The notes under the pieces are model-generated. The model made no database searches, was not told where the DNA came from, and worked only from the letters and a program-made list of their open reading frames with translations. A stretch of DNA of 64,000 nt from an uncultured Anaerolineae bacterium (GTDB lineage Bacteria; Chloroflexota; Anaerolineae; JACIWP01), in assembly GCA_938049385.1 (NCBI GenBank), contig CALIBQ010000025.1:427-64426 (forward strand), read 5' to 3'. Numbering within the stretch: position 1 is the stretch's first letter; each line of letters begins with the position of its first letter. A program made the translations under genes and the position numbers. Positions 21,460-24,248 of this stretch are shown piece after piece.

Positions 21460-21693
21460 ATGCCGGAGTATCGGGAGATCCGCATGGGCCAGGTGGTGCA
21501 GTTGCGCAAGCCCCATCCCTGCGGGTCCGATAAATGGGTGGTGGTGCGGTTGGGCACAGACATCGGCATCCGCTGTCTGGGATGCGGCCGGCGCGTGCTG
21601 TTGCCCCGCAGTACCTTTCTCAAACGGGTCAAAAAGTGGCTCGATGAACTGCCCCCGGAAGCCGCCGGCGCATCTCCTCCTCAGCTCCCGTGA
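21460..21693 (+). CDS. Small DUF951-like Cys-cluster protein
   Basis: [50 protein letters not shown], with AAGGGG 8 nt upstream. A TATAAT box lies at about 21405. Confidence 0.6.
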
Positions 21694-24248
21694 AAGGCGA
21701 GCCTGCTGGCATGAGTTCAGAGAGACACCAGGGCTTTCTCAGCCTGCTGAATAACCCCGCCTTTGTGCGCTTGTGGCTGGCGGAGACCATCGGGCTTTCC
21801 GCGCAGAACGGCATTCATTTCGCGCAAATGGTCACCATCGAGCACCTCACCGGTTCCACGACCTACGTGGGCTTCATGATCCTGGCCTTCAGCCTGCCGG
21901 GGGTGCTCTTCAGCACGCTGGCCGGCGTGCTGGTGGACCGGCTCTCGAAAAAGACGGTGTTGGTGGTTTCCAATTTCGTCCGCGCCCTGAGCATCCTCGG
22001 ATATGTGCTGGCATTGAAACTGCTGTCGGGCTGGCAGGCACTGGTAGCGATGTATCTGGTCACCTTCGTGTCCGCCACCCTCGGGCAGTTCCTGGCGCCG
22101 GCCATGTGGGCCAAGGTGCCGCTCATCGTCGGCGAATCCAACCTGCTGGCGGCCAACGCGCTCTTCAACCTGACCTCCATCCTGGCCCAGGGCATTGGCC
22201 TGCTGGTGCTGGTGCCGCTGGCCGTCAAGTTCCTCGGCATTCCTGTTACCTTCCTCATCCTGTCCATCGCCTATCTGGTCGTGACCGGCCTGGCGATCAG
22301 CTTGCCGCCGGACCGGCCGGCACCCCGCGCCGTACAGGCCGCCACCTCTTCCTTGCGCCGCACCTGGCATGAACTGCGCGAGGGCCTGGCCTTCGTCGTC
22401 TCGCGCCGCGAGGTTACGATCCCTATGGGGCATGTGACCCTCATCGCCACCCTGCTGATGGTGATGGGCATGATGGCGCCCGGTTTCGCCGCCCGAGTGC
22501 TGGGCATGTCCGCTGAGGACGCGGTGTACATCTTCTCGCCAGCCGGCGTGGGCATGGCGCTCTCCACCGCGGCATTGGGACGCTGGGGCCGGCGGCTGGC
22601 GCGTGAGGCCTGGGCCAACCTGGCCCTGATGGGCACGGCGCTGGCCTTTGGCCTGCTGGGGTATCTCAGCCGTGGGCACCTTCCGGCCCGCGCCCCGCTC
22701 TTTGAGATTTATCCCGGCCGCGCTGTCACCCTGACCATGGCGATCATGGCCATCGCACTCTTGGCCGGCTTTTGGATGGCCACCTTGAACACCGTCTCCC
22801 AGACCACCATACAGGAACGCTCCCCCTCCTATATCCGCGGGCGCGTCTATTCCGTCCAGTTCCTCCTTTCCAACCTGATTGGCATCCCGCCGATGCTGGG
22901 GCTGGGCGCGGTGGCCGATACCCTGGGCATTCCGACCGTCTGTTTTATCCTGACAGGGTTAGTCTTCATCACCTGGCTCATCACGCTGATCAACATGCCC
23001 GCAGTGTATCGGGCCCAGGTGCGGGAGCGCTGTGCCGCCGGCGCGGAAGCCGGCCGCCGGCACATCCTGATCCTGGCGCCCCAACACGACCGCGGCGCTT
23101 GGAACGCCGGCCTGGCCGTTCAACAGGCCCTGGCCTCGCTGGCGGACAATATACAGGTTACCTTGGCCGATACGCTGGACTATCTGCCGGCGCTCATCGG
23201 GCGCCTGGGCGCGTGGTTCCGCCGACATGCCGGGGCCGGCTCCCGGCTCGATGCGCTGTTGCACTCTCACGCCGTATTCGCACGCTGGCGGCTTTCCCTG
23301 GCACAGGCCCTGCTCGGGCCGGCTGTGCGCGCTCTTCTGGAAGGCCTTCGGCCGGCGGCGGTGCTCTGTCTGGACCCCCTGATGTGCCATGTGTGCGGCC
23401 GCGCCCGCCGGCATCTGGACCCACCGCCCAGGTTGGCGGCCGTCATCCCCCAACTGGCGCGTGTGGACCCCCTCTGGGGCCAGGGTGAGGTGGATTGGTG
23501 TGGAGTGTCCACCGAGATGGCGGCGGAGAACGCGCGCGCCGCCGGCATAGCGCCGGAAAAGGTTCACGTCCTTGGCCTGCCCATCCACCCCGCGCTGCTG
23601 GAAGACCGGCCGGCAAAAGAACAAGCGCGCCGGCAGTTGGGCTGGGATGAGCGGCTGCCTGTGGTGCTGGTGGTGAGCGGCCGGCGGTGGAGCCGCGCCT
23701 TCTGGGAATGCTGTCGGGCGCTGGCGGAGAGCCGGCTGGCGATGCAGGTGGTGGTGGCCGGGGTACCATCCCCGCGCCTCATTAAGCGGCTGGGGGGCCT
23801 GCCCTGGCAGGTGCCGACGCGCATCTTCCCTTTTGTGGAACACCTGCCGGCCTTCCTCCTGGCGTCCGACGTGCTGATCACCCGCGCCGGCTCCAGCATC
23901 ATCGCCGAAGCGCTGGCCGCCCGGGTGCCCATGCTGTTACTGCCGGAACAGGGCCAGGATGATGCCAGTGTGGCGCTGGTGGTGGGGGCCGGCTGTGGCG
24001 CGGTGCTCGACCCGCCGGCGCATGTCGGCATGGTGCTGGCCGAGTGGCTGCGCCCGGATAATCCCCTGCTGGCGGAGATGGCGGAACGGGCCGGCCGCCT
24101 GGCCAACCCGCACGCCGCCGTTGAGATTGCGACCCAGGTGCTCCGCTGGATAGAAGGGGAGGCTGGCGCAAGTACTGCCGCAGTTTCGGATTCCACCGAC
24201 GTTGTGGTACAATATGATAATCCGAGCACAGCGCAGGATACTGCATGA
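21690..24248 (+). CDS. Fusion protein: N-terminal MFS transporter (about 420 aa, 12 TM) and C-terminal GT28-family glycosyltransferase (MGDG synthase/UgtP/MurG-like)
   Basis: N-terminus has MFS features ([12 protein letters not shown], 12 TM). The C-terminus has [12 protein letters not shown]...[34 protein letters not shown], the GT28 C-terminal UDP-sugar-binding motif. It is one continuous 852-aa frame. Confidence 0.8.

Follow-up and report, generated by a model that had tools for sequence, protein, structure and literature searches.

A major facilitator superfamily transporter fused to an MGDG-synthase-like glycosyltransferase module with a degenerate catalytic loop in an uncultured Anaerolineae bacterium

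To our knowledge, few bacterial glycolipid flippases have been described, and LtaA is the characterised example from the major facilitator superfamily (MFS). In Staphylococcus aureus, the glycosyltransferase (GT) YpfP, also named UgtP, makes diglucosyl-diacylglycerol (Glc2-DAG) on the cytoplasmic leaflet, and the MFS protein LtaA flips Glc2-DAG (PMC8866510). The lipid transporter LplT and its partner Aas are encoded by an operon in many bacteria and by a single fused open reading frame (ORF) in others, the fused forms being uncharacterised (PMC11416262), and MprF is a bifunctional aminoacyl-phosphatidylglycerol synthase and flippase (PMC8131360). Chloroflexi homologues of the plant monogalactosyldiacylglycerol (MGDG) synthase MGD make beta-MGDG, beta-monoglucosyldiacylglycerol (beta-MGlcDG) or diglucosyldiacylglycerol (DGlcDG) (PMC3276260). 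Here we report a gene of an uncultured Anaerolineae bacterium (Chloroflexota) that joins a 12-helix MFS transporter to an MGD-type module of GT family 28 (GT28) in one reading frame. It lies at 21711..24248 on the forward strand of the 64-kb stretch of DNA that was analysed (64,000 nucleotides of contig CALIBQ010000025.1, assembly GCA_938049385.1), referred to below as the window. Coupling of a lipid synthase to a flippase is known in kind; what is unexpected in this genome is that the synthase module seems to have been retained after being disabled.

Like YpfP and LtaA, the locus combines a GT28-type diacylglycerol glycosyltransferase with a transporter of 12 transmembrane (TM) helices, and the same logic would apply to the operon of separate genes from which the fusion seems to derive and to related fusions that keep a canonical catalytic loop. 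The S. aureus proteins differ in being separate polypeptides; furthermore, the GT module described here is MGD1-like (E=4e-32) rather than UgtP-like (2e-08) and in the window lacks the catalytic His, sequence comparison detects no relationship between the MFS half and LtaA, and a lipoteichoic acid context is not evident. In LplT-Aas, too, a peripheral enzyme that modifies lipids is coupled or fused to an MFS transporter of lipids, and the MFS half described here is weakly similar to LplT (7e-05) and to the corresponding part of PRK08633 (E=6.7e-15), far below the cut-offs; however, the partner there is an acyltransferase/acyl-ACP (acyl carrier protein) synthetase and not a glycosyltransferase, and transport is directed inward, for lysolipid repair. 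MprF also unites a cytoplasmic domain that modifies the head group and a membrane domain that translocates the product in one polypeptide, but its folds are unrelated: the flippase is not an MFS protein, the synthase is a GNAT-like aminoacyl transferase, and both domains are active.

The ORF runs uninterrupted from GTG 21690 to 24248 (+), which gives 852 amino acids (aa) in its maximal form. The true start is probably ATG 21711, 17 nt past the stop codon of the preceding DUF951 gene, with a product of 845 aa, because the gene calls of three close relatives begin at this ATG, followed by the conserved residues MSSER..., and the family alignment agrees. Four Pfam domains pass their gathering scores, the last two narrowly: MFS_1 (residues 49-398, 81.5 bits, cut-off 33.4), MFS_3 (residues 18-432, 29.9 bits, cut-off 27), MGDG_synth (residues 476-632, 32.5 bits, cut-off 25) and Glyco_tran_28_C (residues 710-757, 26.9 bits, cut-off 22). 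The AlphaFold2 (AF2) model, built on an 86-sequence alignment, has a mean predicted local distance difference test score (pLDDT) of 91.7 and a predicted template modelling score (pTM) of 0.86, and shows 12 long membrane helices between residues 16 and 444 (845-aa form) and, after them, a two-lobed Rossmann module of the GT-B fold. The helix count was taken from the AF2 secondary structure; a simple Kyte-Doolittle scan did not resolve all 12. The first-pass annotation had described a single frame joining a 12-TM MFS permease to a GT28 domain, and the ORF, the Pfam matches, the model and the 14 fused homologues described below all bear this out.

The DHA3/MFS_3-like MFS half occupies 21711..23042 (+; residues about 23-451 in the 852-aa numbering) and the MGD-type GT-B module 23058..24173 (+; residues 457-828), beginning five residues past TM12. 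As beta1 of the GT-B fold starts five residues beyond TM12 (407-444, 845-aa form) in the model, there is no flexible linker between the halves. A disordered, fast-evolving C-terminal tail follows (24174..24245, +; residues 829-852, pLDDT <50). We infer that the GT module is on the cytoplasmic side, because MFS proteins with 12 TM helices usually have both termini inside and motif A (GxxxDRxGR[KR]-like, residues 78-88, containing DRLSKK, with D83 and R84 invariant) is found in the TM2-TM3 loop, which is cytoplasmic. An enzyme using a UDP-sugar would have to be located on that side.

A search of 5.8 billion proteins returned 14 full-length fused homologues (820-865 aa, 42-92% identity) with both domain sets, in clusters that stem from NCBI, JGI, ENA and Logan assemblies, the named ones being Anaerolineae. 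The domain-architecture search across genomes proposed in the first-pass annotation therefore yielded fused homologues from independent assemblies, and the uninterrupted fused frame was read at 12 loci. The architecture is nevertheless rare, since P0009, P0008 and P0078 were the only full-length fusions of this kind among the top matches listed when 1.84 billion cluster representatives were searched exhaustively with HMMER. Querying the 5.8-billion-protein index with the GT half alone gave one partial match, the word index coping poorly with a divergent domain rich in Ala, Leu and Arg. The first-pass annotation had known of no characterised example of the architecture, and the literature searched likewise contained none for an MFS-MGD fusion.

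The ratio of non-synonymous to synonymous substitution rates (dN/dS) was estimated by the Nei-Gojobori method. Between the window and its closest relatives (dS 0.27-0.73) it was lower in the MFS half (0.05-0.13) than in the GT half (0.19-0.24), and only the last 37 residues approach neutrality (0.4-0.7 over residues 816-852). Both halves of the fusion are under purifying selection, and the fusion is real, rare and vertically inherited in a small group of Anaerolineae.

The GT half has a complete GT-B fold with an MGDG_synth N-domain and a Glyco_tran_28_C C-domain. Its closest solved relative by sequence (phmmer) is the plant enzyme AtMGD1 (4WYI), with the E-value given above, followed by UgtP and MurG (6e-05); Foldseek placed it on AtMGD1 4WYI with a TM-score of 0.85, a root-mean-square deviation of about 3 Å (3.4 Å) and 25% identity, and on MurG with a TM-score of 0.74. 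AtMGD1 (PDB 4WYI/4X1T) and the Roseiflexus enzymes RcMGD, RcMGlcD and RcDGlcD, which come from the same phylum, are thus nearest to the GT half by sequence and fold and have the same two-domain composition. They are, however, stand-alone monotopic enzymes of about 380-400 aa with an invariant GGGH loop, whereas the module in the window is joined to an MFS protein and has lost this loop. Consequently, the 'complete GT28 domain' of the first-pass annotation holds for the fold and not for the catalytic motifs.

At the site of the canonical G-G-G-H-R the window protein reads DRGAW (residues 467-471; 23088..23102, +), with Ala470 in place of the catalytic His. The residue numbering was checked: His155 of AtMGD1 is chain index 19 in a construct starting at residue 137. 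In MGD1 the H155A exchange abolishes activity completely, and this His has been proposed to take the proton from the diacylglycerol hydroxyl (PMC12022483). When aligned, the fused proteins fall into two groups, one with GSAGGGHRS (P0009-P0014) and one with D-x-G-[A/V/T] (the window protein and P0001-P0008), in which the His position is taken by Ala, Val or Thr. All 43 canonical modules examined, 36 of them stand-alone proteins and 7 in fusions, have the catalytic His, and none of the nine members of the window's clade, hereafter the His-less clade, has it.

Further motifs have decayed with it. The second glycine-rich loop, GGGEGMG in canonical enzymes, has become SGRRWSR (VSGRRWSRA at 23673..23699, +, for canonical V/M-G-G-G-E-G-M-G), VTD has become VIPQ, and TKAGP, which contains Lys430, has become TRAGS with Arg in place of Lys. 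The donor-sugar motif GQE..N (canonical GQEEGN) has drifted to GQDDAS (23952..23969, +), where Asp replaces the Glu456 of AtMGD1 and Ser the Asn. Of 52 near-invariant positions, defined as those conserved to at least 88% in the 36 stand-alone enzymes, 22 are changed in the window protein, 14-23 across the His-less clade and 2-4 in the canonical fusions. The replacement residues mostly vary within the His-less clade, the exceptions being the invariant Asp467 and Ser735, and the fold-scaffold residues and Glu740 (of IAEA) are kept.

The GT half has also sped up in the window's clade. At about 60% MFS identity, the GT modules of His-less and canonical fusions are 33% identical, against 47% between canonical fusions and the split operons, in which the two parts are separate genes. 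In the canonical-clade pair L001-L009, the only such pair with DNA, dN/dS is nearly equal for the two halves (0.125 and 0.139), whereas in the window's clade it is 2-3 times higher for the GT half than for the MFS half. An eroded active site together with a kept fold and purifying selection is the pattern that a pseudoenzyme or a re-purposed domain would show, and the GT module has probably been retained as something other than a canonical synthase.

The context of the gene was surveyed by scanning one genome per GTDB species with the family alignment, which gave 41 loci, all in Chloroflexota metagenome-assembled genomes and mostly in Anaerolineae, and each locus was screened with hidden Markov models (HMMs) made from the window's genes. 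At every one of the 46 loci that have upstream DNA (46/46), the MFS gene is directly preceded by a DUF951 gene in the same orientation, with a median spacing of about -4 nt; the DUF951-MFS pair is an invariant unit. An M50 peptidase gene is often found divergently upstream of this pair. The GT28 module and the MFS protein are genetically coupled in two ways, by fusion at 12 loci and as adjacent separate genes at five (L007, L011, L012, L016, L039); the module is absent from the available downstream DNA at 32. Each split GT gene starts at a codon of its own, which lies between a few and some tens of nucleotides past the MFS stop or is in another frame, and begins ...ILILMSDTGGGHR..., with the loop MSDTGGGHR, as in plant MGD1. 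The GT of L011 matches MGD1 over its full length with E=8e-89. These split genes are genuine two-gene operons.

In the MFS-only relatives, the gene right after the MFS gene varies. A GT-C glycosyltransferase of the PMT_2 type (L040:7389-9764) overlaps the MFS gene by 4 nt, GT4 genes follow it at L019:7565-8680 and L005:10344-11429, and in a large group (L038, L022, L025) the neighbour is a 556-aa type I phosphodiesterase/nucleotide pyrophosphatase (L038:7338-9008); NIF3 and YidC genes stand next to the MFS gene in other lineages. These neighbours, envelope glycosylation enzymes among them, are no more than weakly suggestive.

Downstream, holB and ricT follow the fusion only in the window's subclade (the window, L003/L004, L008, L049 and L050), and L051 carries a holB fragment at its contig end. 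No holB gene was found within 6 kb at any split or MFS-only locus, and the canonical-loop fusion P0010 is flanked by hydrogenase genes and a PD40/Tricorn-like gene. The statement that a housekeeping linkage to holB/yaaT implies constitutive importance was thus not sustained, and any functional inference from membership of the holB/ricT operon was rejected, since the synteny is confined to one subclade.

Trees were built by neighbour-joining on Kimura-corrected distances, separately for each half and with 200 bootstraps, and are simple trees. The His-less clade is monophyletic in 200/200 replicates for both halves. Together with the canonical-loop clade it forms one fusion lineage in 178-187/200 replicates of the MFS tree and 156-158/200 of the GT tree; the split operons fall outside this lineage, and the topologies of the two trees correspond. 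P0078 is a third fusion: its loop is the canonical DTGGGH, its MGDG_synth match scores 85.6 bits, and in no replicate (0/200) does it join the main fusion lineage, so that fusion arose at least twice. An independent synthase-transporter fusion is found in P0217 (851 aa), where an MGD-type GT28 module is fused to an EamA/DMT transporter, a member of another superfamily than MFS. Other multi-domain MGD-type proteins are P0175 (778 aa), P0204 (749 aa) and P0125 (671 aa); two of these carry tandem GTs (MGDG_synth/GT28 and then a second GT-B) and one combines GT28 with a class I methyltransferase. The most economical history would start from the DUF951-MFS pair, downstream of which an MGD-type synthase gene was recruited and then fused to the transporter gene, the window's lineage subsequently undergoing catalytic loss and relocation beside holB-ricT.

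We give about an even chance to the reading that the window protein, derived from a DUF951-MFS-MGD operon, acts as a transporter whose GT-B module is no longer catalytic, and that the lipid is made by another enzyme. In the ancestral pair, the synthase would have made a monoglycosyl-diacylglycerol on the inner leaflet and the MFS protein would have flipped the product outward, following the logic of YpfP and LtaA, and the canonical fusions would do the same within one polypeptide. In the window's clade, the catalytic His, the two glycine-rich loops and about 40% of the family-invariant positions of the GT module later disappeared, yet the module stays under purifying selection. The cargo of the transporter would probably still be a glycolipid or a related envelope lipid, and the GT-like domain could bind lipids or nucleotides, pass on the substrate, play a regulatory part or act as a scaffold. 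The fusion and its distribution, the order of events, the decayed motifs, the selection and the fold are established, whereas a glycolipid substrate, the direction of transport and the loss of catalysis are inferred. The first-pass annotation had suggested coupled synthesis and translocation of a glycolipid, which fits the history of the family, with its split canonical MGD operons and its canonical fusions of at least two origins, but is doubtful for the window protein because the catalytic His and both glycine-rich loops are gone and so many near-invariant positions are changed.

A candidate for the other enzyme is the GT4-family glycosyltransferase gene at 44756-46006 (-; Glycos_transf_1 132 bits, Glyco_transf_4 93 bits), the sole further GT-B gene found by the GT HMM in the window. 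The GT4 family includes alpha-glycosyl-diacylglycerol synthases, and it is possible that this gene supplies a glycolipid in trans. More speculatively, the His-less GT-B module could be a pseudo-glycosyltransferase that acts as a regulatory or substrate-delivery domain of an MFS lipid flippase and that, together with DUF951, makes up an unrecognised envelope-lipid export module of Anaerolineae. A module of this sort could bind diacylglycerol, a glycolipid or a UDP-sugar at the inner leaflet and thereby gate or feed the transporter.

Several observations weigh against a lipid transporter with an inactive GT module. Most orthologous DUF951-MFS loci have no GT28 gene nearby, and for this reason the MFS family may have a core function that has nothing to do with MGD products. 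Within the 64-kb window, no gene of the canonical MGD type was found. Neither LtaA nor any other lipid-transporting MFS protein of solved structure is detectably related in sequence to the MFS half, and because the fold matches of this half are generic as well, it is only the association with the GT that points to a lipid substrate. Finally, every member of the His-less clade has Asp467, which precedes the lost His by three residues, and Glu740, Gly734 and Asp727 are kept, so that an active site of a non-canonical kind in the GT module is possible.

This last point leads to a bifunctional synthase-flippase that is still active, in which the GT module would glycosylate diacylglycerol or another lipid, a residue such as Asp467 would act as general base in a non-canonical active site and the MFS half would flip the product; we consider it less likely than the reading above. 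An Asp in the beta1-alpha1 loop is the base in other inverting GT-B families such as the GT9 heptosyltransferases, which counts in its favour, and Asp467 is found in 9/9 members of the clade at a position where canonical enzymes have Gly. Arg647 is kept along with the three residues just named, the GT-B fold is whole, and the GT half is under purifying selection (dN/dS about 0.2). Yet an enzyme of this kind would have to work without a His that is invariant in its canonical relatives and whose replacement by Ala inactivates MGD1, with both glycine-rich loops lost, with Lys430 changed to Arg and with a drifted GQE..N motif, and the replacements vary from member to member and form no new shared motif. 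The GT half moreover evolves 2-3 times faster relative to the MFS half than it does in the one canonical-clade pair. In the model, Asp467 directly precedes helix alpha1, where an Asp is often a helix cap and would not need to be a base.

A second alternative turns on the identity of the MFS half, which could be a DHA3-type exporter or importer of small, non-lipid molecules, like EntS or Mef, with the GT-like module modifying, sensing or accompanying a soluble substrate such as a glycosylated secondary metabolite. The MFS half meets the Pfam thresholds of MFS_1 and MFS_3, and its best NCBIfam similarities are indeed to the DHA3 H+ antiporters (TIGR00900), EntS and Mef, but LplT and the MFS part of the fused LplT-Aas are among them too, and all are below the cut-offs: TIGR00900 scored 91.5 against 319.6, LplT 22 against 297 and, for the GT, PRK13609 51.8 against 500. 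None of the equivalogs PRK13609/13608, MurG TIGR01133, EntS, LplT, Mef and Aas-LplT PRK08633 reaches its curated cut-off. Searches of the PDB with the single sequence and with a 35-sequence profile gave nothing significant, with no LtaA match at E<=1, and on this account no MFS subfamily with a solved structure can be named. The Foldseek matches of the MFS half (NorA, MdfA, VMAT2, G6PT and SPNS2, at TM-scores of 0.75-0.80) are generic MFS matches that include drug and amine transporters, and LtaA is not among the top 50. A soluble substrate would also agree with the absence of a GT28 neighbour at most orthologous MFS genes. Against this, the GT module is MGD-type, and the characterised members of that type all act on diacylglycerol; in addition, the same MFS gene stands beside envelope glycosylation enzymes elsewhere, both the PMT_2 protein with its 4-nt overlap and the GT4 proteins. 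We therefore regard a small-molecule transporter as improbable. A pair of a macrolide-type GT and a Mef efflux protein, brought up by the weak NCBIfam matches, was rejected, the GT being clearly MGD-type.

An assembly or frameshift artefact, or a decaying remnant in which the GT part is a pseudogene tail, has a negligible probability and is excluded for practical purposes: distant orthologues do carry the parts as separate genes, in L007 and L012 with merely an in-frame stop at the junction, which is the finding that the first-pass annotation would have taken as the sign of an artefact, but those genes have their own starts and spacers, the same unbroken frame recurs in 14 protein clusters from independent assemblies and at the 12 loci examined, the GT half keeps a dN/dS far below 1 at dS values of up to about 0.7, and the junction is continuous and confident in the AF2 model.

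The constant partner of the transporter, DUF951, has more than 1000 homologues, none of which carries a functional name. Its residues H21, C23, C41 and C44 are invariant and form a His-Cys3 set. The AF2 model has a core pLDDT >90 and forms a small SH3-like beta-barrel; a fold search against the PDB gave no significant match, only weak SH3-like ones. Because the start and stop codons of the DUF951 and MFS genes frequently overlap, DUF951 and the transporter are suggested to be co-translated and possibly to form a complex. The DUF951 gene of Nitrolancea has no MFS gene beside it, and the pairing is therefore specific to Anaerolineae-type lineages.

In the window, the DUF951 gene lies at 21454..21693 (+) and encodes about 77-79 aa (Pfam DUF951, 84.8 bits); its start is probably 21454/21460 and not GTG 21373. 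About 38 nt upstream of the likely start there is a sigma70-like promoter candidate, TTCGCA-17-TATAAT with an extended-10 TG (21388..21416, +). It is the sole sigma70-like site in 21200-26500, a count that is within chance (shuffles 0.8 +/- 0.8), and its position alone favours it. The DUF951 gene with its own TATAAT promoter, as first described, is thus confirmed in so far as the gene and a TATAAT candidate are both present, while a single site is no more than shuffled sequences give. Downstream, holB, encoding the delta' subunit of DNA polymerase III, occupies 24245..25255 (+), and the 4-nt overlap of its start with the stop of the fusion gene, noted earlier, was read in the sequence as ATGA at 24245-24248. 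It is followed by ricT/yaaT (25258..26325, +), which has a PSP1 domain and scores 293 bits with the NCBIfam model RicT_YaaT_fam; by comparison with relatives, its start is probably ATG 25258. No convincing terminator was found between the fusion, holB and ricT genes, and in the window's lineage ricT/yaaT is probably part of the same transcription unit.

Upstream and divergent to this unit are, all on the reverse strand, genes for an M50 peptidase of about 216 aa (its maximal ORF, 20605-21516, is over-long), an HD-domain protein (20083-20601), a prephenate dehydrogenase (19079-20269) and a 240-aa GT2 glycosyltransferase (18318-19040). This block, 18318-21516 (-), is kept in the close relatives L049 and L050. 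Downstream of ricT, a SpoVS-like gene (26403-26663, -) and the RNase Y gene (26936-28477, -) follow, and the gene order ricT, SpoVS, RNase Y, recX, recA is conserved in L003/L004 and L049. The GC content around the fusion locus is about 62-70%. No tRNA gene was found in the 64-kb window, nor any Rfam family at the gathering threshold.

The fusion of an MGD-type synthase with an MFS protein provides a Rosetta-stone link, which gives a testable function, the translocation of glycosyl-diacylglycerols, to an MFS_3/DHA3-like family that was otherwise anonymous, occurs widely in Chloroflexota and is in every case accompanied by DUF951. DUF951 itself also gains a testable function. The loci form a natural series, from transporters with no GT, through those with a separate GT gene and fusions with an active-looking module, to fusions with a degenerate site, and this series is a system for studying the coupling of synthase and transporter. 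It also addresses what role a GT-B domain may have after catalysis ends. For structural studies of how lipid is handed over, the canonical fusions would be attractive, since the junction between the two halves is predicted by AlphaFold to be rigid.

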